This document shows, one piece after another, positions 1-20,018 of a stretch of DNA of 28,417 nucleotides. The translations under genes and the position numbers were made by a program. Source of the DNA: a virus (taxonomy: Duplodnaviria; Caudoviricetes); IMG/VR virus record IMGVR_UViG_3300032277_000061, positions 1-28,417 of that record. One strand, 5' to 3'. Position 1 is the first letter of the stretch; every line of letters begins with the position of its first letter. Under the pieces are notes generated by a model that was not told where the DNA came from, made no database searches, and was given only the letters and a program-made list of their open reading frames with translations.

Positions 1-1189
1 TGGCGTCTGAGGAAAGCAAAGGCACCGTTGTAGAATGATTAAATATTAAATTTCTAACCGTTGCACCTGCTGATAATCCTAGAATTGAAGATGTGCCACT
101 AAACTCACCTTCAAATGTAACGCCGTTAATGATGCTTTCATCATTACCTTCAATAACACTGTCGCAATTTGTTCCGCCGCCGACTATAGTCACATTTCTT
201 AATTTTAATTTGCTAGCAGCATAAAACCCAGTTTGAGAGAAGTTGGAGCAAGTTACCTTTAAGTCTTGGAAAATACCATTTCCTTCACAAATTGAAGTAT
301 TTCCAATTCCTGATAGATTTGTGATGTCTACTCCCTTGACATCTGCCAGAGAGCCCGTCGAGCCAAAGTTTAAAAATGGGTCGTTACCAGTTCTAGCGTA
401 AGTAATAGCGCCACCGCCCCTTATATTTACGCGAGAACCAGCGCCACCCTGGGCGATTGAATTGTTGCCCATAGTTATAGTTACATTTGGCTGAACCCAT
501 AAGTTAACAACTTGCCCGGCAGGGATGCTTGTGTCAGCTGTTTCTGTAACGTCTGCGGTAACCTGTATTCTTCTTTCGCCCGCCGTAACCGCCGCGCTCA
601 CAGAAGTATAATCAGCACCAGAAGGCGCTACACTTGCATTGTAAAGTTCATTTGAAACGCCTCCTCCAGGAAGACTTGAAACTAATATATGCTTCTTAAC
701 TCCGCCTGCACCGCTATCTTCTATTGCAATAACGTCAGCGCCAACAGGGCTTGCTTTTAAAGCAAATGAAGTAAAATCATTTGCGCTTCTTTTTAACTGA
801 GCATCATTGGTGACATTGTCTAATGATAAGGTGGTTCTTTGGTCTCCCGCAGTCGCATCATCTAATAAAGCTCTACCTGCAGCTGTGCATGGGATTTCTT
901 CTGGGTCCCCGGTGCCCGCAGTAGCGCGACCAAGAACAGTGTCTGTATTAACATCTTGAATCTTAGCAAATGTAACAGAACCATCTGTTATTTGAGCGGT
1001 TCCCAAAGTTCCATTTAAAGTGCTTATATCATTTAGCGTAAAAGTTGCGGGCGTATCGGTTATCCAGAGCGGATTACCGGCCCCATCACAATGAATGATG
1101 GAAGTATTTGCGTCCGCTACCGGTGGCGTCCCGGTGTGGTCCATCACCATCTTTCCATCGAGCAATTCAACGTTTGTATATCCAGCCAT
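1..1189 (-). CDS. Tail/head fibre-spike protein with beta-helix domain (partial; C-terminal end runs off the left edge)
   Basis: Not in the ORF track because it has no stop inside the window. ATG at 1189 with AAGGAG SD; open to base 1 (about 396 aa: MAGYTNVELLDG...). Contains fibre motifs ITDGSVTFAKIQDV..LGRATAGTGDPEEI and TAAGRALLDDATAGDQRTTLSLDNVTN, then a Gly/Asn/Ile-rich beta-helix-like region. Confidence 0.8.
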   Translation of the reverse strand, partial: MAGYTNVELLDGKMVMDHTGTPPVADANTSIIHCDGAGNPLWITDTPATFTLNDISTLNGTLGTAQITDGSVTFAKIQDVNTDTVLGRATAGTGDPEEIPCTAAGRALLDDATAGDQRTTLSLDNVTNDAQLKRSANDFTSFALKASPVGADVIAIEDSGAGGVKKHILVSSLPGGGVSNELYNASVAPSGADYTSVSAAVTAGERRIQVTADVTETADTSIPAGQVVNLWVQPNVTITMGNNSIAQGGAGSRVNIRGGGAITYARTGNDPFLNFGSTGSLADVKGVDITNLSGIGNTSICEGNGIFQDLKVTCSNFSQTGFYAASKLKLRNVTIVGGGTNCDSVIEGNDESIINGVTFEGEFSGTSSILGLSAGATVRNLIFNHSTTVPLLSSDA

Positions 1190-4432: not shown

Positions 4433-4443
4433 AATTAAATCCT

Positions 4444-4578
4444 TTATCCTTTAATGAAGAAGTCGCCATTTCTATCTACGAAGAAATCACCATTTCTATT
4501 TACCCAGAAAATAGGCCCTGGAGGCGGTCCAGCTGAGTCAAAACGACCCATCCATATTCCAATAGAGATGCCAAACAT
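4444..4578 (-). CDS. 44-aa peptide, putative head-fibre anchor/adaptor
   Basis: ATG 4576-4578 overlaps the upstream stop (TAATG coupling). Sequence MFGISIGIWMGRFDSAGPPPGPIFWVNRNGDFFVDRNGDFFIKG. The 98-aa track ORF is probably over-extended at its 5' end. Confidence 0.6.
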   Translation of the reverse strand: MFGISIGIWMGRFDSAGPPPGPIFWVNRNGDFFVDRNGDFFIKG

Positions 4579-4919
4579 TAGTTTCCACCGCCCCAATACA
4601 CAGTTGCTGTAGTAGCTAGACCAATTCCAATAAGCGCCCAAGGATGATACCCGACGGGTAGATTTGGAAGTATTTCTGAGTGCCCATCGGCATACACAAT
4701 CTCGACATCCCCTTGAGCTATTACCCAAAAGGCCTTGCACATTTCAGCTACAGGTTGAGGATTTTGGGGTGTAGAGGGTCCAGCATAAGAAAACAATTCT
4801 CCAGGTACCGCAAAGCCTCCTCGAGACATGGAAGAGTCCCATTCTTTTTGCCTTCTTGGGTCTAAAGCGTCTGGAATTGGAAAGTTACCCTTCCTGAATT
4901 CTGCAACAGTAATCGCCAT
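4578..4919 (-). CDS. Putative head-spike base protein (RcGTA Rcc01079-like)
   Basis: KAFWVIAQGDVEIVYADGHSEILPNLPVGYHP...ATTAT matches the pattern I recall for this family (RALYVG..GD+.V...DG..V.F.N+PAG.LP.....TTA). AGGAG SD. Confidence 0.6.
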   Translation of the reverse strand: MAITVAEFRKGNFPIPDALDPRRQKEWDSSMSRGGFAVPGELFSYAGPSTPQNPQPVAEMCKAFWVIAQGDVEIVYADGHSEILPNLPVGYHPWALIGIGLATTATVYWGGGN

Positions 4920-4960
4920 TTATAAATCTCCTAAATTATATATATTATACACCAATGTAC

Positions 4961-7135
4961 TCAATAATGCGCACGTATTAAATAATCAAAATGGACTACA
5001 CACCTTAAATCATAAGACACTCCCTCCTGTAAAATAATATTGAAAGGTGGAATTGTTAGACGCATATTTCGATGGGTTCCAGAGCCAAAAGCGGCCGTTA
5101 AAACAGTCTGCGGTAAATGGCCCGGAAATGGATCACCTGATTCTAGAGCAATGGTGACTCGGCATGAGTTTGGGTTTGCCCCTAATGGATCAGATATATT
5201 AACCGTAGGAATGCCTGTTCCTATGCTTACAAGTTTATTTAATATTGGTTGAAGTAATTGCTCATTACTAAGAGTCAGCGTATATACACTACCAAAATTA
5301 ATTAAACTGGCGAGTTTAATATCAAATAAATATGGAGAGCTATCAAGCGCTGGCACTGAAGGATAAGCTGCAGCGCCAGCTTGTAAACTAGTTTGAATAT
5401 ACCTCTGGCATCGTTCAAATTCTTCTCCAGCTGTTATATTATCAAACCCACTGGCAGAACCCCCGTGATTTAAGTGAATTTTATCAATCACTAGCCCAGA
5501 CAAGGGAGCGCTAGTCAAATCCTCACTCCAGACAAATGCTGCAATATTATTTATTGTTGGCCCAATAGGAATATCTACAAAAGTTTCTTCCAGCAAAGAG
5601 CCCATTGTTGTAATTTCAGTAAATGTATCACCTGAAGAATTTGGCAAATAACTCCAATTGGGAACCAGAGTCGGCTCTGCACCCGGGTTCCAGTTTAAAA
5701 TAGGGTCTATAGTTGGCGAGTTGGCTACTCCACTCCAGCCCAATAGAGCGATTTTTACGCTATTAATATTGTTCAGCGCAAGACGAACACGCATAGATAC
5801 GCGTCCTTCCCCTTCTCTAATTGAAAGAACATCTTGGAACTCAACAATATTCATGACGCCAAACTTTTTACCTGCGCCAGAAGCTGTAATGACAGAGTTA
5901 AAATATTCTGTCCCTGTGCCAGGAAAAATCTCAACCACGTCATTTCCATCAGATAAAAGAATGGTTTGATCCATAATATAGGAGGCATCATTGTTTGGAA
6001 AAGCAGTTGAAGCAGTGTTAGCTTGCCCAAGTTGTCTTGGGTTATTTACAAAATAACTTCCCACCAAGATATTGTTTTTTACCGCACCATCAAGCGCCTC
6101 TCTCACTGTTTGCTGTGGCGTGTACTGAACTAAATTTGCACCTCTATCATCTTCTGTTTCCTTTAATGCTCCGGGCAATATACGAACAAATTGTTCATCT
6201 GGAGTCTCGTAGGGGTACGTTTCTGTAGGGTCCTCAAGCTCGAATTTTCCATTAGCTATATCAATCGTAATAGGTTGAGATATTTGGGGCTGAAGCATAA
6301 TGGATAAATAATCATCCCCATTAGTACCAAGGTTTCTTCCTGCAGTGCTGTTAATGGTAAAAGAGATATTATAAATTTGCCAATTTTCATCTATGTTAAA
6401 TGTATTAACATCTTGAATGTTGGTGGGGTCCGGAGCACCTCCTGTACCGAAAAACTGTTCATATTGTAATTTTACTGTGCTTGTAGTGCCTGGAACCCCA
6501 GTTCGCGCGACGAAATAAACATTCACTATTCTTCCGTTTAAAGAATGAACATCCTGAAATATTTGCTTGTGCCTGTTAGCCGCATCTCCTGCCGCACCAT
6601 CCGAAACATATCGAATATAATAGATTGGCGTAGACCCGGGAACCGTAACTCCTCCGCCAAAAGCTTGGCGTGAAATCGTTACATTTGAAGCGTCATTTGT
6701 TCTTTCAAAATACCAATCCGTTGCTGTCTCAGTAGTTCCAATTGGCAAATCATCATTAGTGAAAGTTTCTTTACCTTCTCTCCAAAAAGTAAACTGCTCA
6801 TTTCTGAAGAAATTATCTACTGTGACAAAATTATTTACCGGGCTTCCGCCACCAGAACCATCAACAAAAGGATAATTATTTTCATTAAATACTGGGACGC
6901 CATTTTTATCAAAAACTTTAATTGCGTATAAAGCATCCTGGTCCCAATAAATAATTTTACCGCCATTTTGATCTAACCGAATAGGGTTTGAAAGAGCGAC
7001 GACTTCTCCAGGGTCCTCAAAAGCAGCCTTAGGGGTTATGCCATCTATTTCATAAGTTTCTACATAACCACCACTAAGCGGCTTACCCTCGTTATCCCTG
7101 AAATATTGTACTGCATTTGGAGCTAATATTGCCAT
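4961..7135 (-). CDS. Tail fibre/spike with P22-like virion (head)-binding domain and two jelly-roll/lectin-like domains
   Basis: N-terminal YFRDNEGKPLSGGYVETY...TP..FED....NPIRLDQNG head-binding motif. Later NFFRNEQF..W..G...TDW and EEFERCQRY motifs typical of phage fibre domains. Occupies the position of P22 gene 9. Confidence 0.8.
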   Translation of the reverse strand: MAILAPNAVQYFRDNEGKPLSGGYVETYEIDGITPKAAFEDPGEVVALSNPIRLDQNGGKIIYWDQDALYAIKVFDKNGVPVFNENNYPFVDGSGGGSPVNNFVTVDNFFRNEQFTFWREGKETFTNDDLPIGTTETATDWYFERTNDASNVTISRQAFGGGVTVPGSTPIYYIRYVSDGAAGDAANRHKQIFQDVHSLNGRIVNVYFVARTGVPGTTSTVKLQYEQFFGTGGAPDPTNIQDVNTFNIDENWQIYNISFTINSTAGRNLGTNGDDYLSIMLQPQISQPITIDIANGKFELEDPTETYPYETPDEQFVRILPGALKETEDDRGANLVQYTPQQTVREALDGAVKNNILVGSYFVNNPRQLGQANTASTAFPNNDASYIMDQTILLSDGNDVVEIFPGTGTEYFNSVITASGAGKKFGVMNIVEFQDVLSIREGEGRVSMRVRLALNNINSVKIALLGWSGVANSPTIDPILNWNPGAEPTLVPNWSYLPNSSGDTFTEITTMGSLLEETFVDIPIGPTINNIAAFVWSEDLTSAPLSGLVIDKIHLNHGGSASGFDNITAGEEFERCQRYIQTSLQAGAAAYPSVPALDSSPYLFDIKLASLINFGSVYTLTLSNEQLLQPILNKLVSIGTGIPTVNISDPLGANPNSCRVTIALESGDPFPGHLPQTVLTAAFGSGTHRNMRLTIPPFNIILQEGVSYDLRCVVHFDYLIRAHY

Positions 7136-7164
7136 TTGACTTTCCTATGTAAAAGGGTTAACAT
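7136..7164 (+). promoter_or_regulatory. Sigma70-like promoter of the antisense membrane-protein gene
   Basis: TTGACT (7136-7141), 17 bp spacer, TAACAT (7159-7164). Confidence 0.55.
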
Positions 7165-7173
7165 ATTTGTTTA
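7158..7173. promoter_or_regulatory. Operator copy 1
   Basis: TTAACA-TATT-TGTTTA palindrome overlapping the -10 and start region. Confidence 0.55.
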
Positions 7174-7196
7174 AATTAGTAATGAATGGTGAAAAA

Positions 7197-7391
7197 ATGA
7201 ACTTCGGAGCGCTATACCTAGATATAACAGAATCACAAATATTTAAATCAATTATTAACTTCATAATATTACCATTGCTTTACGCATCATTTATATCACA
7301 ATATGGTGCGCTGAGCTTTCTTAAATTAATGATAGCGTGGTTTGGCTTGAATGTAGGTATTCGCTCAATAATAAGAGTGTGCTCAACATAA
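7197..7391 (+). CDS. Small two-TM membrane protein (moron; possible superinfection exclusion)
   Basis: 64 aa from ATG 7197 (GGTGA upstream) with two hydrophobic segments. Fills the gap antisense to the late operon, has its own promoter, and its stop abuts the ejection gene stop. Confidence 0.55.
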   Translation: MNFGALYLDITESQIFKSIINFIILPLLYASFISQYGALSFLKLMIAWFGLNVGIRSIIRVCST

Positions 7392-7394
7392 ATA

Positions 7395-9125
7395 TTAGTT
7401 TGCACCTGAAACATCCCGGCTTAAAGCAAGCCCTGCTAACCTAGAGGCGCCGCCTTTCACGCCTCTTTTAGCCAACTTCGGCGCTCTTTCTTTTGCTGCG
7501 CCAACACCTTCTACAGCTTTATCAATAAGATATTCTGCGGCTTCTGGTTTTGCATGCGTTAAAGCACCAGCAGCAATACCCCACCCAGGGGAGTATCCAA
7601 GAATGGATGAGAGTCCAGCCATAACACCCGCAGACAAGACGCTGTTTTTAACCTTCTCGTGCCCTTTTGCGTTTTTTAAATATTTTGAAAGGCTTTTCCC
7701 GCTCTCGCCCTTACCAAAAAGGTGAGAGTGCTTATCGCTTACTGACTTATCATAAGCTTTTGACAGGTTATTTATATACCCCTCTCCGTCAATAGTGCTT
7801 GTCAAATTTCCTAACGCATCATAAGCTATTAAGTTTTGCGTCTCCTCTGGAAGTTTTTTGTAAGCTTCTTTTAAGTCAGACCCTTCTTTTGAAAACATTT
7901 GAGCTGGGGTAATGGTTTCTTTTCCATTTTCAAACTTATCTAAATTCTTTCTCAGAATAGTTCCTTTTTTAAATGGAGTGTAATTTTCTTTATAATACTT
8001 GTCTGCTCCTTTTTGAAGCGCTCTAATATCATACTTGTCTCCCAATGATTTCTTTATATCCTTTTCAAGTAAATCATTTGCACCAGATAGCTGACTGCCT
8101 AACCCTCGCTTGAAATCGTCTCCACTATTAAGTAAATCGCCAGCATGGTTTTTAAGGTTTTTAGACATAGAGCCAGCATTTTGTAGGCTTCTATTTTTCT
8201 TATAAGTATCCAAGTCATTGAAAAGATCTTTAGGTACTCTTGATGAGTTCTCTTTTTGTTGCGTTATTCCATCCATATAATTTTCAAAATTTGGAGTTTC
8301 CAACTTGTTGGGTCCCTCATTATGGTATCCGGCTTTTTTTATAGCTTCTTTAGCGGTATTAAAAGCTTCATCTTTCTTTTTCCGAATAGTATGTCTTACC
8401 TGATTTAAATCGGTCATTGTTTTCTTGTACAATCCGCTTGGCTTTGTATCGCCAAGGAATCTTTTTGCCGCAACAAGTCCATGATTCCCCAGAATACCAA
8501 CCCCTTTTCCTGCGGCGCCTAATCCTGCGGCGCCCAATGCTCCCATACCCAAGTCCTCCATTAAGTTGCCGTGGCTGGGGTCAGAAGCGCCATATATCGC
8601 TGACAAAACCCCAGCTTCTGCTGGCGTTGCAGCTTTTGATAGGCCTGCCCCAATCATATGACTTAATGTAGGCACGTATTTTTCTGCAACTTTAGCCACT
8701 TTAGGAGCAGCTTTTACAGCAGCTCCTTCTGGAAGTAAAAATGAAGATGCAATTTCCCCTAGCGTTGATGAGACCGGATGAGATTCCCTGAGCTCTTTAG
8801 CAAATTCTGGCTTTTGAAACGCAGGTATATTCTTGTTAAACTTTCTTGGTATAGCCGTTGCAATATTCCCTAGCCCAGTCGCAAGCTCACCAAGACCTTC
8901 AACCCCACCAGCTCCTGCAGCTAAAATATCATTCCCTATATCTTTTAGCATTCCGACACCTTTACCGGTAGAGCCATGACTACCCTTAGTCTGAGCTGGA
9001 ACTGGAGAGCCTATTTTTAATGATTCTCTTAACTGTCTTTTTGCTTCCGAAGGATTTCCGCGAGCGGACTCAGTAATGTCCCCGTCTTTTATCCAATTAT
9101 CATAATCTTTATTGGTAATAGCCAT
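7395..9125 (-). CDS. DNA ejection protein (P22 gp16 position)
   Basis: 576 aa, Ala/Gly/Lys-rich and helical with hydrophobic GxxxG stretches. Third of three genes after the tail genes. Confidence 0.65.
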   Translation of the reverse strand: MAITNKDYDNWIKDGDITESARGNPSEAKRQLRESLKIGSPVPAQTKGSHGSTGKGVGMLKDIGNDILAAGAGGVEGLGELATGLGNIATAIPRKFNKNIPAFQKPEFAKELRESHPVSSTLGEIASSFLLPEGAAVKAAPKVAKVAEKYVPTLSHMIGAGLSKAATPAEAGVLSAIYGASDPSHGNLMEDLGMGALGAAGLGAAGKGVGILGNHGLVAAKRFLGDTKPSGLYKKTMTDLNQVRHTIRKKKDEAFNTAKEAIKKAGYHNEGPNKLETPNFENYMDGITQQKENSSRVPKDLFNDLDTYKKNRSLQNAGSMSKNLKNHAGDLLNSGDDFKRGLGSQLSGANDLLEKDIKKSLGDKYDIRALQKGADKYYKENYTPFKKGTILRKNLDKFENGKETITPAQMFSKEGSDLKEAYKKLPEETQNLIAYDALGNLTSTIDGEGYINNLSKAYDKSVSDKHSHLFGKGESGKSLSKYLKNAKGHEKVKNSVLSAGVMAGLSSILGYSPGWGIAAGALTHAKPEAAEYLIDKAVEGVGAAKERAPKLAKRGVKGGASRLAGLALSRDVSGAN

Positions 9126-9127
9126 TT

Positions 9128-10081
9128 TTAACCTTCTTCTTCCAATTTCTTTAAAGCTGCTTCTTTCCGCTTCCTCTGGTAAAGGGCGCCACCATAAATA
9201 CCCTCCTGGGTAGGTTCTCGGTCTTTATCTGTGGAAGCCAGCTTCATTCCCTTACCCTGATTTAAGTTTTCATTTCTAAACTGCATCATTAAGTAAGGTA
9301 AATCATGTAATCCACCAAAATAGCGGGTTTTTGTTTTAAAAGATTTAGGCATTAATAAATCCCGAACCCTGCCAAGCTGCTTATCAGTCAAATTAACACC
9401 ATAGGCTTTTGAGATGCTATCCATCGCGCTATTAACATATGTATTAATATCGTTATCTATAGCTTGTCGCCTTTGTGTACCCGCTCCATCAAAGACACCT
9501 CCAATCGTATCATCCCACGCTTTGTCAAATCCGCCTCCAGAAAAATATCCCCAATGATTTGCAAGCTCCTTAAGGTCATTTATAATGGGTATAGCCTTCT
9601 CTGCAGCAGCAGCCTGATTAAATAGTTTTGTTTTTGATGCGGTGGTAGGCATGAATGTTTGCTTGCCGGTATTAGGGTCGGTTTGAACCCCCCCCGCTCT
9701 AGCAGTAGTATTTGCGCTTGCTCCGCCAGTGGTAACAATCGGCCTACCTTGGTCATCATACCCTACAGTAACTCCTGTAGCCGGACCAATTAACTGCTTC
9801 CCATCCGGCCCCATAACTGGCTCTGATTTTGATGGGTCAAGTTTGCTGACTCTATAAAGTTCATTATTAGGACCTTTTTGAATTACAAAGTCAGAAGCTT
9901 TAGCTTGAGGATGAAGCAGCCCCTGAGTTTGGGCGCCAAGCTGTCCTATTTTAGCCTGTGTTAACATATCAGCTAAGGCAGACTTTTTTCTAGCATCACG
10001 CCTTTTTTCATCGAAGTCCCACCCATCTTGAGCGGCATCATAAATATCACTAGTTGGAATTAAAGAACCTAAAATAGACAT
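9128..10081 (-). CDS. DNA ejection protein (P22 gp20 position)
   Basis: 317 aa; synteny and composition only. Confidence 0.6.
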   Translation of the reverse strand: MSILGSLIPTSDIYDAAQDGWDFDEKRRDARKKSALADMLTQAKIGQLGAQTQGLLHPQAKASDFVIQKGPNNELYRVSKLDPSKSEPVMGPDGKQLIGPATGVTVGYDDQGRPIVTTGGASANTTARAGGVQTDPNTGKQTFMPTTASKTKLFNQAAAAEKAIPIINDLKELANHWGYFSGGGFDKAWDDTIGGVFDGAGTQRRQAIDNDINTYVNSAMDSISKAYGVNLTDKQLGRVRDLLMPKSFKTKTRYFGGLHDLPYLMMQFRNENLNQGKGMKLASTDKDREPTQEGIYGGALYQRKRKEAALKKLEEEG

Positions 10082-10089
10082 ATACCTTC

Positions 10090-10749
10090 CTACATCATCA
10101 TCGCTATCATGGCAGCTTTTGCTAACCGAGAAAGAGCTTTGGTTGCGCCTTTGATTTGATCGTGACGCTTAGCTCCCTTATATTGTTCCAAATCCGCTTT
10201 ATTGCTAGCAAACTGACCTGGGATTTGAGCCAGTGTGTTAGCCGCACCATACTCCCTACCAATTCCTGCATTTGCTAAATTAGCAAGACGGCTAGCATCT
10301 GCATTATATTGGTTTCCCTGGAATTGACCTATATCATAAAGATTTGAAAAATCCTGCTGTTGGTCTTTAGATATTATAGACTGCGTAAGCTCAGCCATTC
10401 TTCTTTGGTCTTCGGGAGTTCCCAGCATTCCGCCTGATGCAGCCGCATGCTGCTCTCCTTTTTGAGCTTGATCAAGTTGATATTGAGCATAAGGAGACAT
10501 TTGATAACCTCCCTCAGCACTGTTTAAAATCGCTCTAGGCGTCATACCCATAGCAGATTGATGCATCTGATAAGCGGGACCTAAACCTTGGTATTGGTTC
10601 CCAATTGCCCCACGATATGCATTAAAATCAGGGCCTGCATGTTGTGTGTATGGAGCCAATTGTTGCTGCGCTTGTTGGTAAGCATGGTCGTATTCTTTCT
10701 GAGCGTTATGTATTCCATAAAAATGTGGATTTAGTGGAGATTCAGCCAT
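10090..10749 (-). CDS. DNA transfer/ejection protein, P22 gp7-like
   Basis: YQMSPYAQYQLDQAQKGEQHAAASGGMLG resembles the gp7 SPxYQF...AAAxGGL motif. Gln/Ala rich. Confidence 0.7.
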   Translation of the reverse strand: MAESPLNPHFYGIHNAQKEYDHAYQQAQQQLAPYTQHAGPDFNAYRGAIGNQYQGLGPAYQMHQSAMGMTPRAILNSAEGGYQMSPYAQYQLDQAQKGEQHAAASGGMLGTPEDQRRMAELTQSIISKDQQQDFSNLYDIGQFQGNQYNADASRLANLANAGIGREYGAANTLAQIPGQFASNKADLEQYKGAKRHDQIKGATKALSRLAKAAMIAMMM

Positions 10750-10759
10750 AATATTATTC

Positions 10760-11536
10760 CTACAAATTATCTATTCTAATCTTTTCTAAAGTATGATTTA
10801 TTCCCAACAAAGATGGGTTTTCTCCAAACTCTACTTTAACATATTGCAAGTCAAAATCAGCAGAAGCACCACCTAAATCATCAACTAAAACTCTAAGCTG
10901 ACTAAATGAGCCTGAACCTGGATTTAAACTTCCAACCTGAATGTTTTTTGATATTTTATTTAAGCCAGGGTCTAAAAAAATAGCCCCGCTATTATAAATA
11001 TCTCCGGTACCATCAGTATAGACCGAAAACCTTATTTTTGTCCTATTGCTAGTGTTGTTACTTATCTGAGCACTGAAAGTTAAATTCTTTTCTTGATATT
11101 TAAAAGCTGTATTAAAATCAGATGAATAATTAACATTATAAAAATAAATAGGTGCTGTAGGCATAGCTGTTATAGATACATTGACGTAATTCTTAGAGCC
11201 CAACAGATTGCTTGAATCAGAGGGGTAAGCGGTAGGAGTCAACGTATACATATTGCCTCCAGTTGCTCCTACAACGTTCCACTGCTCTACAAACTCAGCA
11301 TCGTCCCCGTCAGCCTGAGTCGTTGGCGTAAGCCCTTTGGTTCGTATAAAGTTATAGTCAGGATTTATAGTTTCAGAAGGATTAGGAATTCCTAATGTGG
11401 CATTTATATTATTCTGAACTCGAGAAAAATAAAGCTCATACAGGTGCGATAAGGTCTTGCTATCCTGGGTCAATACAGAATCATGGATGGGCAAAGATGA
11501 TAACTGAGGATATATGTTTTTATTGCTATCTGTCAT
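10760..11536 (-). CDS. Tail-associated protein at the tail-needle (gp26) position, with a beta-sandwich domain
   Basis: Overlaps the gp10-like stop (ATGA). Short helical N-terminus, then a beta-rich domain ending YVKVEFGENPS. Confidence 0.5.
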   Translation of the reverse strand: MTDSNKNIYPQLSSLPIHDSVLTQDSKTLSHLYELYFSRVQNNINATLGIPNPSETINPDYNFIRTKGLTPTTQADGDDAEFVEQWNVVGATGGNMYTLTPTAYPSDSSNLLGSKNYVNVSITAMPTAPIYFYNVNYSSDFNTAFKYQEKNLTFSAQISNNTSNRTKIRFSVYTDGTGDIYNSGAIFLDPGLNKISKNIQVGSLNPGSGSFSQLRVLVDDLGGASADFDLQYVKVEFGENPSLLGINHTLEKIRIDNL

Positions 11537-13035
11537 GACAATATCCCATAATGCATAATCCCACCCATTAAAAAATAAGGAACTGGGTCTGACATGCTAA
11601 TCTTAAAAACCAGTCTGTTCGACTGAACTCTTCCAAGCAACCTATGTCGGCATCTATGGTCTCGCCTACCAATTGCGCCTATAGAAATTCGATGCTCGTT
11701 ACCAAAAGAAGTGCCCCCGTCCCTGGAGACACTAAGACGTATCGTTGGGATTGAACCCAATACTACTGGTGTTTGATTCTGTATCAAAGAAGGTAGCTGA
11801 CTTATCCCGACACCAGCTTGAAAATGAAGCTCAACTTCATTTATCGTAATATACCCATATGGCAACCCTGATAAATTCGGACTAAAAACCCTTTCCCTAA
11901 TTATAGTCTCACCTACATCTAAAAAATAATCCAATGAGAGCTCATAAATATTTGAATCATTAAAACTCGAGAAGTATTGTCTATTATTGAAAAATGAAAT
12001 AGAAACCATTGGATGATATCCACCAGAATGGCTTGTTCTTTTGTGCCACTCTCTAGTATTCACATCATAAACTAAAGTAGTATTGGCGTTTTTTGATGTC
12101 ATCACGTAGAACAAATGTCCATCTTCTACATAATCCATTCCTACCATATCGGAGATATCAAATTGATGAGAAAGCTCTTGGATTACAAAATCTATAGATG
12201 CATTGCTAGCCTTAATGGGAACGCCGCCATCAGTCATCATTACACTTGATGGTCCGCTTGAATTACCACTTAGCCAGAAAACCGCAGCATATCCACCTGG
12301 GCCTTGGGCCTTTACCAAAGAATTTGGTGAAAATATTCCATATTCGAAAAGAAAGTTATTGTCTCTTGCGAGAGGAGCGTTAGTCTGAGGAGTTATATAC
12401 CAACTTTCTGTTGAATATACTCCTAAGAATAAAACCCTTTGATGTATCGATGTGATACGAACTACATTATCAGATTCTGACTCAAATGCGACCCGGTCAA
12501 GTATATCCCAAGCGAATATATCATTGTTTCCAGATAGGGCTATTATTTTTGAGTTTTTACTGAGCAATATAAAATAAGTTCCCTTGTATATTATAGAGTC
12601 AGGGTTTGGAGGAAGACCAGGCGTTAATACTTGAACAAATGTACCGGATAACGGAGTGTATGCCCACAAATCAGTTCCATCTGTTATTCCTATTTGTGTA
12701 CCACTAGAAGCCATGCTAACGCCGCCAGTCGACGTGTTTAATGTTCCACGTAATGTGGGTACTAAGTTTGAGTTAAAGGAATAAAACTTGTCCCCTAACA
12801 CTTTGTATAGAACGCCATCGAAAACACGGGAGCCACCAGGCCTTCCTGTGTGTGTGGACGAACCTGTATCTACTTCTCGAGACAATACGCTTCCAGGTGT
12901 ATTCCTAAGAAATAATTTTTGATTACTTAAGTTTATGTCTGGATATAGATTAATCGATATTTGAGGGCTAACATCGGTGCTTCTAGACTCATTGTAGGGG
13001 CCTACAACGTGAAGATTAGTTATATTTCTTTTCAC
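11533..13035 (-). CDS. Tail hub/packaged-DNA stabilisation protein, P22 gp10-like
   Basis: 500 aa, beta-propeller-like. SINLYP, TPG, DGHLFYV, TLVYD...WH, SRDGG.SF and ISMSDPV motifs; synteny. Confidence 0.85.
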   Translation of the reverse strand: MKRNITNLHVVGPYNESRSTDVSPQISINLYPDINLSNQKLFLRNTPGSVLSREVDTGSSTHTGRPGGSRVFDGVLYKVLGDKFYSFNSNLVPTLRGTLNTSTGGVSMASSGTQIGITDGTDLWAYTPLSGTFVQVLTPGLPPNPDSIIYKGTYFILLSKNSKIIALSGNNDIFAWDILDRVAFESESDNVVRITSIHQRVLFLGVYSTESWYITPQTNAPLARDNNFLFEYGIFSPNSLVKAQGPGGYAAVFWLSGNSSGPSSVMMTDGGVPIKASNASIDFVIQELSHQFDISDMVGMDYVEDGHLFYVMTSKNANTTLVYDVNTREWHKRTSHSGGYHPMVSISFFNNRQYFSSFNDSNIYELSLDYFLDVGETIIRERVFSPNLSGLPYGYITINEVELHFQAGVGISQLPSLIQNQTPVVLGSIPTIRLSVSRDGGTSFGNEHRISIGAIGRRDHRCRHRLLGRVQSNRLVFKISMSDPVPYFLMGGIMHYGILS

Positions 13036-13046
13036 TGAAACACCTT

Positions 13047-13808
13047 TTATCTTCCACTATACCACCATCCATATTTTGGACCATATGTTGCATAGCTTCC
13101 AAATGCAGCACCATTTGTTTTTGAACGATTGTCCTTTATTGTTCTTACTAGGAATTCCGAGCGAAGCCTGTTAAGTTCTGCGTGGAACTTTAATCCAAGC
13201 TCAGTTCCAAATATATCGGCCAAATCTGATGAAAGTTGATACCTTGCATACTTCATCATGAATGTAGGGAGTCTGCCTGTAATATCCTCAAACTCAGTAT
13301 AAACAGGATATTTTTCTTTCACCAAACACCTAACCTCTCTAGGAGTAGATGGAGAGGTTGGGAAATCCAGTTTAGAATACCCATTCTCATCGCCTTCCCT
13401 TCTACCCTGTTTTAGAATATAAACTGAAGTTGGATAGCCTCCACTATAAGTAATGGACCTATTATTGAATTCAAAGGCATCTATAATGGTCACAGGCTGC
13501 CATGCCTCAGTACCATCAGTATTAGTATCAATTCTTATTCTAATTTCTGTAAAATCAGCAACCTCTGGTGTGATAATATCATTAGATGAATCAGGGCCAA
13601 CAGTATAAATTCTTTTTGTTGGAGTTAATGTAAAAGAGAGTTCTGACAAATATGGCGTCATGTCCTGATGTTCACTGAAATCCTGAAGCATATTATTTAA
13701 CGCAAGCATGCCTTGACTTAAGTAAGTTGCATTGGGTGACTCTTCTGGATCTACAATTTGAGCCATAATGAGTGATTGACGTACCAATTCACCAGCTATA
13801 ATAGCCAT
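13047..13808 (-). CDS. Head-to-tail adaptor, P22 gp4-like
   Basis: N-terminal ELVRQSL..A.I...E.P......GM.ALN.ML and C-terminal YQLSSDLA..FG pattern; immediately after coat. Confidence 0.75.
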   Translation of the reverse strand: MAIIAGELVRQSLIMAQIVDPEESPNATYLSQGMLALNNMLQDFSEHQDMTPYLSELSFTLTPTKRIYTVGPDSSNDIITPEVADFTEIRIRIDTNTDGTEAWQPVTIIDAFEFNNRSITYSGGYPTSVYILKQGRREGDENGYSKLDFPTSPSTPREVRCLVKEKYPVYTEFEDITGRLPTFMMKYARYQLSSDLADIFGTELGLKFHAELNRLRSEFLVRTIKDNRSKTNGAAFGSYATYGPKYGWWYSGR

Positions 13809-13820
13809 ATAAACCTCTTT

Positions 13821-13851
13821 AAATAGGCGCCCACCCTAAGATAGACGCCTA
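13821..13851 (-). terminator. Stem-loop after the coat gene (weak intrinsic terminator or mRNA-stabilising hairpin)
   Basis: Minus strand UAGGCGUCUAUC-UUAG-GGUGGGCGCCUA (12-bp stem with G:U pairs) followed by UUU. Confidence 0.65.
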
Positions 13852-13859
13852 ATACTTAA

Positions 13860-15068
13860 TTATACAGATGCAGGTTGACTTATATTTAGCGCCAAATATT
13901 TATTGAACACTAAAAAGCCCATCAACACATCAAATCGGAATATATGAGCGCCGGTATTATAATTCCAGTCTCTAACATAACGAATTGACATGTACCCTCT
14001 ACCGTCAGAACCCTCAATGTATCGGCATACTCGACCAGGAGCTTCTGGAAGCTTTTGAGATACCATAGTACATGCATCAGGATGAGCGATAAAGTTTTTC
14101 TGATGACTAGGAATAACCGTAACAGTAGCACCATTTGCTGGGTAGTCTGTAACGGTACCCTCATTTGGATCTAACACAGTTGGAGTTATTGGGTTATTCA
14201 GGGTTACTGCTGCATTACCAGAGCCATCAGAGCCAACATCAGCAGCCACAGAGAACTGAGCAGCAGAAACTCCAGTTTGGTTGTTAACATTGGTAGCTAA
14301 AATGCCATCAATAACCAACAAATCACCCTCTTTAAATGCATCTGGGTCACTTACTGCGAGACCAGTAACATTTAATGTTAAACCAGATTGAGTTGCCCCA
14401 TCAACTGTAACTGTTGCCGCACTTGCGGTTCCAGAAACGTGATTTAACACATCATTATCTTCTAAAATGGTATGACCAGCAAAATAAGGTAAATCACCAG
14501 TTTTACTAATAAAAGAGTTTAGACGAGTATTAAAGTTGTTATTAAGCCCACCAGCAATAGACGCATAATCATCTATTGAGTAGATACCATAAGCGTTGTT
14601 ACTTTCAATACCAAACTTCTTCAATACAGTTCTACCCGCATTTACAGAGGGGAATGAATTAAGAGGTGCACCGCTAGATCCAGTAAAATGAAATGCTTTA
14701 TTAATTTGAGCCATCATACGCTTGTTGGCCTCAACTTTAATAGATTCAATTGCAGGCTTTACAACTGCATTAGCCAAGTCAGGGAAGCTTTGAGCTAATT
14801 GACGACTGTCAATCTCAAAATCTTGACCAAACTCATCCATTACAACTAAAGCTTTTGAATTTTGATTTATTGACTTTGGAACAAAGTTGACACCGTCCCT
14901 AGCCTGGTAGTAGTTGGGCTCTTGAATCCTAAGAGTGTCGCCCGTTTTATTTGTAAAATCTTTCTCGTATTTTCTATTTGCGAATTCGCAAATTTTCATT
15001 TCGTTTTTTAAGTATGCAGTACCGTACCTGACGACCATGTCATCATTAATTGCATTATTAACAGCCAT
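13860..15068 (-). CDS. Major capsid protein, P22 coat (gp5) family
   Basis: NRKYEKDF..KTGDTLRI..P, I-domain-like F.EGD.+.IDG, and C-terminal RFDVLMGF. GAGG SD. Confidence 0.92.
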   Translation of the reverse strand: MAVNNAINDDMVVRYGTAYLKNEMKICEFANRKYEKDFTNKTGDTLRIQEPNYYQARDGVNFVPKSINQNSKALVVMDEFGQDFEIDSRQLAQSFPDLANAVVKPAIESIKVEANKRMMAQINKAFHFTGSSGAPLNSFPSVNAGRTVLKKFGIESNNAYGIYSIDDYASIAGGLNNNFNTRLNSFISKTGDLPYFAGHTILEDNDVLNHVSGTASAATVTVDGATQSGLTLNVTGLAVSDPDAFKEGDLLVIDGILATNVNNQTGVSAAQFSVAADVGSDGSGNAAVTLNNPITPTVLDPNEGTVTDYPANGATVTVIPSHQKNFIAHPDACTMVSQKLPEAPGRVCRYIEGSDGRGYMSIRYVRDWNYNTGAHIFRFDVLMGFLVFNKYLALNISQPASV

Positions 15069-15081
15069 TTCGATAATATCC

Positions 15082-15951
15082 TCATGTCATATTACCTCCA
15101 CTCTGAACCCAGGCCAGTACTTGTTCGTCGCTCATGTCGTTTAAGTTAGAACTACTGCCCTTAGACTCTACATTAATAGAGGGAGGCGTTTTTGTAACTT
15201 TAGGTTTGGGTTTGGAAAATCTAGTTTCTATTTTTCCAAGCTCCATAACCGCCTTATGAGCAGGCATTTTTGAAATGTTTTCTAAACGAGAAGGGTTCTT
15301 TGTGAGATACATGATGATATCCGGGCCATGTTCGGCATCAAGGATAGCATTGTGAACCTCTTTAGCTGCAGCCATGTTGACTATTTGATCTGCAAACTCT
15401 GATTCAGCGTTTTCAAAATCACTATAGGTGTCAAGCGCAGCAGAATACTTCTCATTCCATTTCTCAATCCTGCGTTCCTGTTCTTTTTGTGCTTGACGAC
15501 GATATTCATGTTCTGTTAACTTTCTTTCGAAAAAAGCGTCCATATCTTGACTCGGCTCAGCTACATCTGATTTCCCAGAGCTAGCTAAATCCTCACCAGA
15601 ATATTCTGATTCTTTGAGAGCTTTAAGCCTTTCATTCTCAGCTTGCAATCTCTCCAATGCTTCTTGAGCATCTTTTTTTTGCCTAGTAAGCTTATTGATA
15701 CGCTTCTCGTACCCATTTGATTGCTTACTAGATTCATCAGAATCGCTATCTATTGAGTCATCATCAGACTCAACTTCCAACTCTTCCTCAGTATCCTCAG
15801 AATCATCTTTAATATTTTCACTATCTTCATTTTTGACCTCAGAATCTTCAACAACCTCATCTTGACGATCAGATTGAGAGTCTTCTAAAACCTGTTGAAT
15901 GGTTTCATCTTCATTCAACTCGTTAACATTTTCAATTTTTTCGTTCGACAT
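15082..15951 (-). CDS. Scaffolding protein
   Basis: Acidic N-terminus, YEKRINKLTRQK coiled coil, GPDIIMYL.KNP, ELGKIE and TKTPP.I motifs; lies between portal and coat. Likely start ATG 15951 (GGTGG SD) rather than 16005. Confidence 0.85.
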   Translation of the reverse strand: MSNEKIENVNELNEDETIQQVLEDSQSDRQDEVVEDSEVKNEDSENIKDDSEDTEEELEVESDDDSIDSDSDESSKQSNGYEKRINKLTRQKKDAQEALERLQAENERLKALKESEYSGEDLASSGKSDVAEPSQDMDAFFERKLTEHEYRRQAQKEQERRIEKWNEKYSAALDTYSDFENAESEFADQIVNMAAAKEVHNAILDAEHGPDIIMYLTKNPSRLENISKMPAHKAVMELGKIETRFSKPKPKVTKTPPSINVESKGSSSNLNDMSDEQVLAWVQSGGNMT

Positions 15952-16055
15952 AACACCACCTATATTTTGAAAAAATATATAAAACAAACCTGGGTAAAAA
16001 GCCACCCATAAAGCTACCGGTTTTTTCTAAAACCGAAAACACCATGACTAAGTCA

Positions 16056-18170
16056 TTATTCATTTTGAGACAATTGCCCCAACTCATTCTTTATAATCGG
16101 AATCGTTGAGCTTGTCAAGTTTTTAACCACATCTAAAGCCAACTTAACTTGCTCTATATTATTTTCATTTTCTGATTTTAACATTTCAGCCTCGGCCGCT
16201 TGAAGCCTTGCTTGAACTTGAGACAAAGTCCCGATTAACTTACCAACCTGCTCTGTATGTTCATTTTCAATCTTCTCCTTCTCAAGCACCAGCTTTTGCT
16301 GTTCAAGCATTAATTTCTGCTGATTATATTGCTGGTCTGCCTGCATTTTCTGCTCTTGAGGAGAGGGGCCAGGAGGAGTTGGCTGAGGAGAGATACCTTG
16401 TTTTTCAGCCTGATAAATATTAAATGGCAGTAATGTTTTGAACCTGTCAGATATTAATTTAGCATTTTCAATATCAAGATTTTGCGCAGCTTCTCCAGCA
16501 ACAAAACTCATAGCCTCTGGATTATTCATAGCTTGGCCAAAATCAACAAGTTGTTGTACAGCTCTCTGTTTTTGAGTTGCGAAATTCGGTCCAGCAATCA
16601 CCTGGAGTCCAGAGAGTTTCTCAGGTATTTCCATAGAAGATTGGCTAGATGCCTGGACTCCACCCTCATACTCTACAAAAGAACCAGAATCAGCATTGTT
16701 AATATGAACAAACTCCGGCTCACCAGATTTGCTCAATATAGAAATAGTGCGACTACCGTCATAGACCTTAGGAAATGCTTTTACATACGCATCTCCAAGA
16801 GCCTCCATAGCCCGGTTAACATTGCTGCCTATCAGTTCTTGAGTATCATTTGCTGCTTCTTGTCTTGCCATGATAGCTAAGCCAGAGGACGCATTGCTTT
16901 GCTGCCCCCGACTTTCATCGAAAACCCCAACAATTTCGCGAACCTGTCTCTGCTGTTGCTCAAACAAAGTTAAAAGCTCTGGGCTAAACGGTATGGGAGC
17001 AATATAAGTAGGCGCCTGACCAGCATACCCGTTATAAGTCAAAGTACCATGATATCGTAAAGGTTCTTTCCAACATTCGTGCCCTTTCACAACTTCCGCG
17101 TCAGCCATGAAATTTGGCTTTTTAGCATTCAATATCTGATTAACAATCTCAGAGCCAGTGTAGTTAACAAGATGCTGAGCATCTTTAACATCTTCTGCGA
17201 AAGAGCGAGTATATTGTTGCCCATCTACACATTTAGAATTTCCATCAGCATAAAATACCGGAAGTGTATAACCCGGGAATTCGCCTTCTTCAATTATTCT
17301 ATCCTGAATCAGACGATAAAATTTTATTTTAGACTTTACAGAATCCCTTTTCCTAACAATTTCTGGCTTAATAACTAAGTCAGCATATTGCTCGTCATAC
17401 TTTTCTTTTGTGATGCTCGTATTATCTTCAAGCAAGTACAATGTTAATTTGTGGAATTCTTTCACGTAATGCATGCATATTGTGACAGATTGATCGGAAG
17501 CCCACGCAAAAGCAGGTCCTATATTTTGATTTTCTGGACCATACCCTCCAATTCTTCCGTAATACCCATCTCTAAAATTTATTGAATCCAAATCAATACT
17601 TGGATATTTCTTTTTAAATTTCTTCTTTGGCATAGAATATAGGTAGCCAGCAAATTCGCCGTCATCCTTCGTTAAGCTCATAGCGTTTGGATCAAAATAT
17701 ACTGAGAATGGGTCATAAACCTTGTCGAAGATAAATTCCTGATCCATAGAATCTTCGTCTTTATAGTCAGTACGCATTATAAAAGCGCCCCAACCCGCCT
17801 CATAAGCATCTCGGTAAACTTCTTGATAAACTTGATTGAAATTAGACTTTACAGATATATCGCGAAGCTTACCCGCAACCACATCTGTAACTTCTTGAGA
17901 AACAGATGCATCCACTTGCTCAACTTTAAACTCGGGAGTGTTTTTCCTTTGCTTCCCGATGACATTGCTAGAGATTGATGGAAGAAGATTAAACGTAAGA
18001 GTCGCCAAATCTGACTGCTCCCTAGTTTGCATCTGAGAGTCACCCCACTGACTGCAATATATATACTTTGTGTTAATTCTGGCTCGTTGTATATTATCTT
18101 GCCAATACGAATACCAGCTTTCTATTTGCTTTGAAAACAATTCGGCTTTCGATTGAACATCATCTGACAT
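16056..18170 (-). CDS. Portal protein, P22 gp1-like
   Basis: 704 aa. QW....R...LTFN, VYFDP.A...D, VKDAQ...N and SG.AI.ARQ motifs; Gln-rich C-terminal barrel helix. Confidence 0.92.
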   Translation of the reverse strand: MSDDVQSKAELFSKQIESWYSYWQDNIQRARINTKYIYCSQWGDSQMQTREQSDLATLTFNLLPSISSNVIGKQRKNTPEFKVEQVDASVSQEVTDVVAGKLRDISVKSNFNQVYQEVYRDAYEAGWGAFIMRTDYKDEDSMDQEFIFDKVYDPFSVYFDPNAMSLTKDDGEFAGYLYSMPKKKFKKKYPSIDLDSINFRDGYYGRIGGYGPENQNIGPAFAWASDQSVTICMHYVKEFHKLTLYLLEDNTSITKEKYDEQYADLVIKPEIVRKRDSVKSKIKFYRLIQDRIIEEGEFPGYTLPVFYADGNSKCVDGQQYTRSFAEDVKDAQHLVNYTGSEIVNQILNAKKPNFMADAEVVKGHECWKEPLRYHGTLTYNGYAGQAPTYIAPIPFSPELLTLFEQQQRQVREIVGVFDESRGQQSNASSGLAIMARQEAANDTQELIGSNVNRAMEALGDAYVKAFPKVYDGSRTISILSKSGEPEFVHINNADSGSFVEYEGGVQASSQSSMEIPEKLSGLQVIAGPNFATQKQRAVQQLVDFGQAMNNPEAMSFVAGEAAQNLDIENAKLISDRFKTLLPFNIYQAEKQGISPQPTPPGPSPQEQKMQADQQYNQQKLMLEQQKLVLEKEKIENEHTEQVGKLIGTLSQVQARLQAAEAEMLKSENENNIEQVKLALDVVKNLTSSTIPIIKNELGQLSQNE

Positions 18171-19651
18171 TATCTAGACATCCACGATGAGGGAGCGGGT
18201 TTTTGGTAAGGCATTTTTTTTATATCAACATTTTCTAGCTCGCCAACATAATGCATACAAATATACTGAAATGCATCTTGAATATGAGACCACTTATCTT
18301 TTTTTGGCAACTCTTTAAAACCCTCTGTTGACAGACTGTTAATTCGCTCGTACACATATCGACCATTTAAACCCTCGATAAGAGTCTTGCTGGTTGGTGA
18401 TATTATGCACATTGGTTCGGCATTTGTCAACTTATTGAGTACATTCTTTACACTATCCAGTCGTCTTTTTATAGAGTTAGACCGAGCAGCAAAAGCATTT
18501 ATGCCATGTTTACTCAATACTTGGAACGCAAAAGAAGCGTCTGTATCTTTTCGATTGTTACCAGATGGGTCTCCAACTGCAGTGTACGTTGCATTGGGGA
18601 ATCTATTTCTCACATAGGGCAAAAATATTTTAGAACAGAATTCATCAATTGATATATCAGTACCACCACACTCGCCTAACACATACAATCTTCTGTCTAT
18701 ATACTGAACAAACACGCAGCACGGGTCTAATCCAAAGTCTAACCCCATGCCAACGGGGTAATTTGGGTCGTAAGAAATCTCTTGAGGAGATACATGTAAG
18801 TGACTTGAAAACTCAGGATAAACAGGCTTACCATCCCTTGTGTATCCATACTCACCCATACCATACACACGAACATAATCCTCTGTAGATACGTCTATCA
18901 TGTTTTGATAATACTGAACTCCAACATTACGTATATTCTCTGCAAACTCATTAACCTTAAAGTCTCCATTCTGGTCTTTATAAACTGCTGGAGGTTGTTT
19001 GAATATCTCCATGTTTTTAGGAACTTTTCCAGTCTCAAACTTTTGATATATCCAGTTGTGCTCATCCGGCGCATTTGTGTCAACGATGATGCATTTGTGG
19101 CAAACCGGAACATCCTTTTTGTTGGGAAATCTAAGTCGATATATAAGTGCTTGGTATACTTCAAAGGGAAGCTCTCTCCCTTCATTCACCCATACTCCGG
19201 TAACCTCTCTAGAAAGTAATTTCTTCTCATCTTTCTTACCGCTTACAGCAAGAAATTCAATTTCAAGATTAACTTTAAGTTCAGGTATTTTTATGTTGAC
19301 AGTGATGGGATGACTTAACTTTGGATGTCCAAGGCTTCCGAACCACTCTTGCCACGTCTTCATAGTAGTCCCGATGAGCTCAGGATAAGTGTTTCTAATG
19401 ATTACCCACCTGCTCTCACGCCAGCCAGTGGCAGGATGAATAGGCATCAAGGAAGCTTGTCTAAAGATTTCAAAGCAGCATGTTACAGATTTACCAGACC
19501 CTACGGGGCCCATAATCACTTTTAGCAGGGCATTAGATTTATGGAAGAGGGCGCCTGTGGGGCTTGCTACGTAGCTTATAGCTTCCGCTGATACCTCGAC
19601 TTCATAATCGTACTCATCCTCTTCTAGCCAGCTAGGTTCAGATTCAGTCAT
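18170..19651 (-). CDS. terL: Terminase large subunit
   Basis: Walker A GPVGSGKS, Walker B GVWVNE, coupling motif DTN, nuclease GLDFG...SHIQDAFQY. Likely start ATG 19651 overlapping the terS stop (ATGACTGA). Confidence 0.95.
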   Translation of the reverse strand: MTESEPSWLEEDEYDYEVEVSAEAISYVASPTGALFHKSNALLKVIMGPVGSGKSVTCCFEIFRQASLMPIHPATGWRESRWVIIRNTYPELIGTTMKTWQEWFGSLGHPKLSHPITVNIKIPELKVNLEIEFLAVSGKKDEKKLLSREVTGVWVNEGRELPFEVYQALIYRLRFPNKKDVPVCHKCIIVDTNAPDEHNWIYQKFETGKVPKNMEIFKQPPAVYKDQNGDFKVNEFAENIRNVGVQYYQNMIDVSTEDYVRVYGMGEYGYTRDGKPVYPEFSSHLHVSPQEISYDPNYPVGMGLDFGLDPCCVFVQYIDRRLYVLGECGGTDISIDEFCSKIFLPYVRNRFPNATYTAVGDPSGNNRKDTDASFAFQVLSKHGINAFAARSNSIKRRLDSVKNVLNKLTNAEPMCIISPTSKTLIEGLNGRYVYERINSLSTEGFKELPKKDKWSHIQDAFQYICMHYVGELENVDIKKMPYQKPAPSSWMSR

Positions 19652-20018
19652 TCTCTTTATCAGAATCGACAGACTCTGCAGGCTCTCCAAAGTTCATATT
19701 AAAAGAAATGTTTCTACCATCACTTGATGAAACGTCAATAGCTTTAATTGTAGGCGCACAGTACTTATACATGTTATTAATCAATTGAACCTTATATTTA
19801 ATAGTACATTCAGGGTCATTAAACAAAGCAAGAGATTCGTTTACAAGATCAAAACCCTCCTCTTTCAATCTAGAAACTACATTATAGTATTTATCTTGAG
19901 ATAAACGATTAGTCTTTGCACCCTTTGGCCTTCCGCCCGGATTTCCAGAAACTCCTTTAACAAACACACCGCTCGGGTCTCTTGGCACTTCAGACTTTAC
20001 TTCATCTTCAGCAGACAT
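19644..20018 (-). CDS. terS: Terminase small subunit
   Basis: GVFVKGVSGNPGGRPKG (DUF5681-like motif common in TerS); directly upstream of terL. Confidence 0.8.
   Translation of the reverse strand: MSAEDEVKSEVPRDPSGVFVKGVSGNPGGRPKGAKTNRLSQDKYYNVVSRLKEEGFDLVNESLALFNDPECTIKYKVQLINNMYKYCAPTIKAIDVSSSDGRNISFNMNFGEPAESVDSDKEND

Follow-up and report, generated by a model that had tools for sequence, protein, structure and literature searches.

The window described here, the whole 28,417-nucleotide stretch of a linear virus record that is about 43% complete, encodes a head-spike base of the Rcc01079 type coupled to a stand-alone peptide of 44 residues, and this pairing of base and peptide recurs in other phage lineages. 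The reading that we favour, and hold to be somewhat probable, is that the peptide is an adaptor, with an N-terminal anchor that sits in the base pentamer and a C-terminal tag that a fibre, in this phage fibre B, receives in a socket made of three chains.

Gene order and virion context

The window carries a P22-like virion module with genes for terminase, portal (PF16510), scaffold, capsid, Hc3 head closure, ejection proteins and a 724-aa tail-fibre-like product. Following the 724-aa gene, the order on the minus strand is the 113-aa gene, the 44-aa ORF, the 1074-aa fibre A and the truncated fibre B (Table 1). The window does not show the combination of a host-integrated cluster, RcGTA-like tail genes and lack of phage replication genes by which a gene transfer agent (GTA) is recognised and, because the P22-like portal, capsid, Hc3 and ejection genes lie in a linear virus record, it is not regarded as one. 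A search for direct relatives of the 724-aa gene returned none and a search against PDB sequences was likewise without a match. Parts of this gene and of a 258-aa gene (10760-11536) look similar by eye, with jelly-roll-like segments; BLASTP between the two gave only 32% identity over 34 aa (E 0.15). Close relatives of the 113-aa protein, of the 44-aa peptide and of the phage itself were searched for and none were found. The junction is supported by a single contig from one microbial-mat run, identical across 3500-5500 at a depth of 11.4. This contig may be the window's own source and is therefore not an independent confirmation.

Table 1. Positions in the window of the features discussed in the text
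Feature	Position	Strand	Basis or remark
P22-like virion module	4961..19690	minus	PF16510, phrog_156, 283, 578, 598, 4492
724-aa tail-fibre-like gene	4961-7135		Just upstream of the 113-aa gene
Head-spike base, Rcc01079 (GhsA)-type jelly roll, 113 aa	4578..4919	minus	Profile, relatives, structural model
Stand-alone anchor-linker-tag peptide, 44 aa	4444..4578	minus	Sequence; same architecture in other phages
Anchor, peptide residues 1-10	4549..4578	minus	Sequence against the available passages of PMC7296036
C-terminal tag, peptide residues 23-44	4447..4512	minus	Sequence; six-frame search
Fibre A, 1074 aa	1208..4432	minus	Two pairs of internal repeats; without the candidate socket motif
Fibre B, at least 396 aa	2..1189	minus	Cut by the contig end
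Candidate socket motif, fibre B residues 136-174	668..784	minus	Profile and tblastn matches

The spike base

The 113-aa ORF has an AGGAG 7 nt before its ATG, and a preliminary description had assigned its product to the Rcc01079 type of spike base. The model NF048002 gives this protein 17.2 bits (E 0.0047), which is below the curated 28-bit cut-off for membership. When it was compared with 1.84 billion protein representatives, five non-self matches were obtained at E up to 0.001. Its relatives P0029 and P0032 pass the NF048002 cut-off with 67.6 and 71.9 bits; P0028, P0030 and P0031 were discarded as base relatives, being long repeat proteins with repeat-driven matches. A profile built from 30 other bases gives the window's protein 34.6 bits, and a base alignment that includes it retrieves 6tb9_E3, a chain of Rcc01079, at E 3.5e-5.

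Folding of the single sequence gave an unusable model (pLDDT 39), and the model that was used was built from an 18-row alignment. This model, of low confidence (pLDDT 57), has a six-stranded jelly-roll fold, and two solved spike bases rank first when it is compared with 48,161 solved chains. The first is Rcc01079 (6tb9_E3; Z 6.9, rmsd 4.7, 73 residues aligned) and the second the Carin-1 spike base (8cjz_h; Z 6.3), with the next chain at 4.7; a Z under 8 can by itself reflect a common arrangement, and the rank order of the bases agrees with the results from NF048002 and from the Atlas. In the Atlas structural list for the 113-aa protein the top two rows are RCAP_Rcc01079 clusters. The assignment made in the preliminary description is in agreement with these results: the 113-aa protein is a divergent homologue of Rcc01079 that fails the curated threshold and, by analogy with RcGTA, it would form a pentamer on the capsid vertices.

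The 44-residue peptide

The TAA of the base gene overlaps the ATG of the 44-aa ORF by one base (TAATG), and this coupling, reported earlier, can be read directly at 4578. In the Rhizobium phage RHph_TM3_3_9 (EVB39_059/058) an NF048002 base is also joined through a one-base TAATG overlap to a Gly/hydrophobic anchor, but there the anchor is in frame with a 462-aa SGNH-type body and there is no separate peptide. Since that base and its 462-aa fibre share the TAATG, the overlap alone is no marker of a split system.

The ORF encodes MFGISIGIWMGRFDSAGPPPGPIFWVNRNGDFFVDRNGDFFIKG. The codon index of its frame is 0.71, compared with 0.68-0.78 in the large genes of this phage and 0.53-0.57 in the shifted and reverse frames across the same ORF. 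At the N-terminus the hydrophobic residues F2, I4, I6, I8 and M10 are in register with the five (iso)leucines of Rcc01080 as given in the available passages of PMC7296036, which upholds the likening of this segment to the Rcc01080 anchor. As in the Rcc01080 type, residues 2-10 alternate and are encoded right after the base; the receptor-binding body that would follow in the same chain is missing, as a stop is reached after 44 codons. A GPPPGP linker separates the anchor from the tag. In the tag, hydrophobic triplets at residues 24-26, 32-34 and 40-42 are split by two (N/D)RNGD turns with a period of 8, so that the tandem hairpin-like repeat seen in the preliminary description is indeed present. 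It is the sole tandem tag in the window (one match among 442 six-frame segments). The two 8-codon repeat units differ by two synonymous codons and one non-synonymous codon, which are small numbers. Alignment of the peptide against PDB sequences gave no match, and Atlas feature matches of 0.92-0.93 to unnamed clusters of 46-52 aa serve as a lead only. At 4436-4454, on the minus strand, the 7-nt sequence TAAAGGA stands twice in tandem, and this duplication supplies both the last codons of the peptide and the ribosome-binding site of fibre A.

Recurrence of the base and peptide

Reading from the base side covered 33 viral loci. Several of these run into long anchor-led fibres, many have no evident anchor gene, and five loci from two lineages continue with stand-alone peptides, which are of 37 aa in L034/L038-L040 and are encoded by a 13-aa and a 48-aa ORF in L044. 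In L034 (2559-3283) and L038/L039 (3578-4332) two tandem spike-base-like genes are followed by the 37-aa anchor peptide, and the peptides of L034/L038-L040 have a different, Phe/Asp-rich C-terminal motif. The short fibre gene after the 37-aa peptide is conserved at its N-terminus and varies at its C-terminus among L034, L038 and L039. Between L034 and L038, 11 of 20 base differences fall at third positions. The two micro-ORFs of L044 (4207-4394) are consecutive, both bear an anchor and both come after one base gene. In L041 (4210-4662) an anchor motif was observed after an apparent signal peptide, in a locus where the base frame also has a signal-like N-terminus.

The peptide was also sought with a DNA pattern made up of a start, an anchor and a tandem tag, in which the base gene is not included. 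The first pattern returned 119 loci, five of them with an in-frame anchor-and-tag ORF of 40-48 aa, and an NF048002 base lies directly upstream in all five of these records, over the cut-off in four. The other 114 loci were dropped as chance, among them L094 and L111, whose 49-aa ORFs are tag-like but have neither anchor nor base. Three further loci came from a second pattern (68 loci): L280, whose base is over the cut-off, and L271 and L254, in which no base could be recognised. The remaining 65, including the short tag-like ORFs of L218, L244 and L266, were again dropped as chance. An exact anchor pattern gave one locus, a chance match, and none of the 11 loci from a genome scan with a TGATG pattern was retained. 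In a pattern scan of metagenomes (27 loci) the only base-peptide pair was the window's own record.

With the window excluded, the base-bearing lineages that have an 8-periodic tag are L084/L077/L152, L101, L146, L280 and L044, and a tag peptide is present where no base was detected in L271, L254 and MW202897.1. Peptide-coupled genes that do not match NF048002 were observed in MW202897.1 (L213, 4500-4838) and, as a 160-aa upstream gene, in L271. These may encode bases that have diverged further, or another type of vertex socket. The peptides of all these lineages are 40-48 aa long and stop no more than a few residues after the tag, and an end at this point in the peptides of unrelated phages argues against a chance break. 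Comparison of these sequences suggests that the stand-alone peptide is a recurring design and that a frameshift artefact is unlikely. The preliminary description had taken the peptide to be a stand-alone product, and the finding of such a peptide with a base in five other lineages supports this.

Downstream fibres and a candidate socket motif

Fibre A starts 11 nt past the peptide, in another frame, with its own AAAGGA and with an in-frame stop six codons upstream. Its first 100 aa show weak matches to genes for tail fibres, tailspikes and depolymerases (12 records, best E 4e-4), on which basis the protein may be an appendage of the tail. Given this N-terminus, the earlier statement that the fibres lack a tail anchor is not established. 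Their description as beta-helix fibres was a reading by eye: a Pfam search of the fibres for a beta-helix gave no match, and a search of PDB sequences with the 1074-aa protein gave nothing meaningful.

Fibre B contains a motif that is a candidate homologue of the N-termini of fibre genes following anchor-tag peptides elsewhere. When 67 residues of fibre B were compared by tblastn with 50,697 phage records, four were matched. One of them is MW202897.1 (E 2, 49% identity over 35 aa), where the matched stretch opens a 275-aa gene lying directly after a 46-aa anchor-plus-triple-tag ORF, behind capsid genes. Another of the four, a jumbo phage, carries two motifs of this kind. Of the 255 ORFs of the window, a socket profile built from sequences other than the window's matched fibre B alone (16.9 bits against 1.8), and its reversed control reached at most 5.5 bits.

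The motif is short and divergent in sequence. In a 13-row socket alignment the leave-one-out score was 14.6 bits for the fibre B segment and 11.0 bits for MW202897.1; other scores of 10.4, 8.0 and 5.1 bits were equalled by 8, 10 and 22 of 3000 background windows, and this range of the top 8-22 of 3000 covers the segments of the window, L280, L182 and L271. The seeds were chosen by eye, and one of them (L007) failed leave-one-out. A six-seed profile made without the split-anchor loci gave 7.7 bits to the window, 5.9 to MW202897.1 and 1.4 to L280, against a background maximum of 5.6, and missed L271. The socket alignments had no PDB sequence match and no convincing PHROG.

Among the eight other lineages with an 8-periodic tag, four have the motif of about 40 aa at the start of the gene adjoining the peptide, and in L101, L146, L044 and L254 it is absent downstream of the peptide. 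In the window it is internal to fibre B and two genes from the peptide. The preliminary description had proposed a search for base-peptide-fibre triplets; the comparisons made here show the base and peptide together in five other lineages and a motif-led next gene in four of the eight that have the tag. Its suggestion that the C-terminal repeat docks a fibre gains support by association from the motif-led genes; the adjacent fibre A, which the same suggestion would involve, is without the motif. The partner of the peptide in the window is likely, from these sequence comparisons, to be the second fibre, B, rather than the adjacent 1074-aa fibre. A complex prediction with three copies of fibre B (residues ~127-185) and the peptide scored 0.00 in two runs in which the controls were not folded, and it speaks neither for nor against this pairing.

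Comparison with known spikes

The head spike of RcGTA (PDB 6TB9/6TBA/6TSU/6TUI) is built of the base Rcc01079 (GhsA) and the fibre Rcc01080 (GhsB). According to the available passages of PMC7296036, residues 2-10 of Rcc01080 form a five-point star in which the alternating (iso)leucines fill the pockets of the five base subunits, and in those of PMC10218006 the remainder of the chain serves receptor binding. The Carin-1 podophage Spike Base Protein (8cjz chain h) places the same base family on a podophage capsid. The window resembles RcGTA in the jelly-roll base, in the order of base then anchor and in the alternation of five hydrophobic residues over positions 2-10. It differs in that Rcc01080 is one chain of 325 aa comprising both anchor and capsule-binding body, whereas the anchor chain of the window stops at 44 aa and has an 8-periodic tag and no receptor-binding domain. 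In addition, the window's base has about 30 more residues at its N-terminus and its virion is P22-like rather than that of a GTA.

Secondary tail spikes are docked by short peptides or adaptors in K1-5/K1E/SP6 (gp37), G7C (gp66/gp63.1) and KP32 (gp37/gp38). The window's arrangement is similar to these branched systems in that a secondary spike or fibre would be hung via a short docking element and not by an anchor of its own. In the branched systems, however, docking takes place on the tail and it is the incoming spike that bears the peptide, whereas the arrangement proposed here, from an association in gene order, has a free micro-protein as the plug on the head side and a putative socket on the fibre.

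No description of a split head-spike anchor was found in the full-text literature searched (mainly open papers), in agreement with the preliminary description, which had been aware of none; in the same full text 'spike base protein' occurs in two papers, and RcGTA is the subject of each. In the available parts of PMC10172136 (crAss001), PMC13450770 (phi92), PMC11440229 (PhiM1) and PMC13317679 (Carin-1 Dpo31) no split head-spike anchor was seen.

A proposed adaptor and its alternatives

By analogy with RcGTA, the N-terminus of the peptide would plug into the base pentamer on the capsid vertices, with one peptide per pentamer and its five alternating hydrophobic residues in the five pockets. The GPPPGP stretch could then lift the tag off the base and each 8-periodic triplet could bind one of the three chains of a trimer by way of the socket motif of about 40 aa, here most likely that in fibre B. 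This docking of tag and socket is suggested by gene order and by the three-fold periodicity of the tag. The peptide would in this way bridge five-fold to three-fold symmetry, and a trimeric sugar-binding fibre would sit where RcGTA holds a monomeric one.

We consider it unlikely that base and peptide are instead a complete minimal spike, in which the aromatic tail of the peptide binds a surface or another part of the virion and the two fibres are parts of the P22-like tail, where they might, for instance, branch from the 724-aa protein. The position of that tail-fibre-like gene just upstream, the weak N-terminal matches of fibre A, the many base loci with no anchor-led gene directly downstream and the four lineages with no downstream socket motif would all be consistent with this, but it does not account for the motif of fibre B heading the gene that adjoins the peptide in four other lineages. 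Furthermore, no other protein of the window bears the tag, which would leave a socket in fibre B with no other partner in the sequenced part.

Rather improbable, too, is that the peptide is an adaptor whose partner is the adjacent fibre A, bound through another N-terminal domain, or a chain of fibres A and B. Elsewhere the motif-bearing gene usually adjoins the peptide, and L101, L146 and L044 carry other N-termini after it, so that there may be several types of socket; two genes after the tag protein of L017 there is an N-terminus that by eye is similar to that of fibre A. The socket profile, however, scores nothing on fibre A. That the 44-aa ORF is what was once the start of a longer head fibre, now broken or wrongly assembled, through a frameshift or as a remnant after fibre exchange, seems very improbable: long anchor-led fibres right after the base are common (L027, L036, L046, L056, L057, RHph_TM3_3_9), the 7-nt duplication lies at the peptide's end and the sole confirming contig may be source data, but a ribosome-binding site and an upstream in-frame stop belong to fibre A itself, the frame without one 7-nt copy still ends three codons later, and the peptides of unrelated phages stop at the same point past the tag.

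The tag on other proteins and diversified fibres

A strict tandem-tag pattern was found at 20 viral loci, and most of these tags are inserts in, or C-termini of, hub, neck, tail and portal-adjacent proteins (ORFs read by eye). At least one locus, L010, is a chance ORF. At five of the 20 a nearby gene opens with the shared motif of about 40 aa; these five had been picked by eye as seeds and that count is therefore circular, which the tblastn result with fibre B is not. In L009 and L014, which have P22-like modules, the tandem tag is inserted into a 593-aa head-closure-like protein; the tag is lacking from the Hc3 protein of the window itself (11533-13035).

In L182 (record G003; 3154-6466, minus strand), one of the four lineages with a motif-led gene after the anchor-tag peptide, this gene resembles the target of a diversity-generating retroelement. 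A template-like repeat is present at 4298-4417, with 17 of 22 mismatches at A, and an Avd-like gene, the template repeat and a reverse transcriptase follow (gene labels by eye). A retroelement target in this position fits a receptor-binding role, and directed mutagenesis acting on a head-spike fibre would be of note. A weaker repeat (17/31) and an Avd-like gene were observed in L271 (3629-5566 and downstream).

It is possible, although we would stop short of calling it probable, that tag and motif are a general and undescribed plug-and-socket pair among tailed phages. The tag would have been grafted onto hub, neck, tail and vertex-anchor proteins, any socket-bearing trimeric fibres, including those diversified by retroelements, would be hung there, and the micro-proteins of 40-48 aa would be five-fold-to-three-fold adaptors at the vertices.

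Implications

The head spike described in the literature found is of the two-gene RcGTA type only. The adaptor reading would assign a function to ORFs of 40-48 aa that have no family annotation, and to a repeat met with in many structural proteins of phages. With a separate adaptor it would become clear how a vertex base with five pockets carries a trimeric fibre, and how phages could swap the receptor-binding proteins of the head as single genes with the spike unchanged. The candidate pair of peptide and domain could also serve for protein display on phage capsids.
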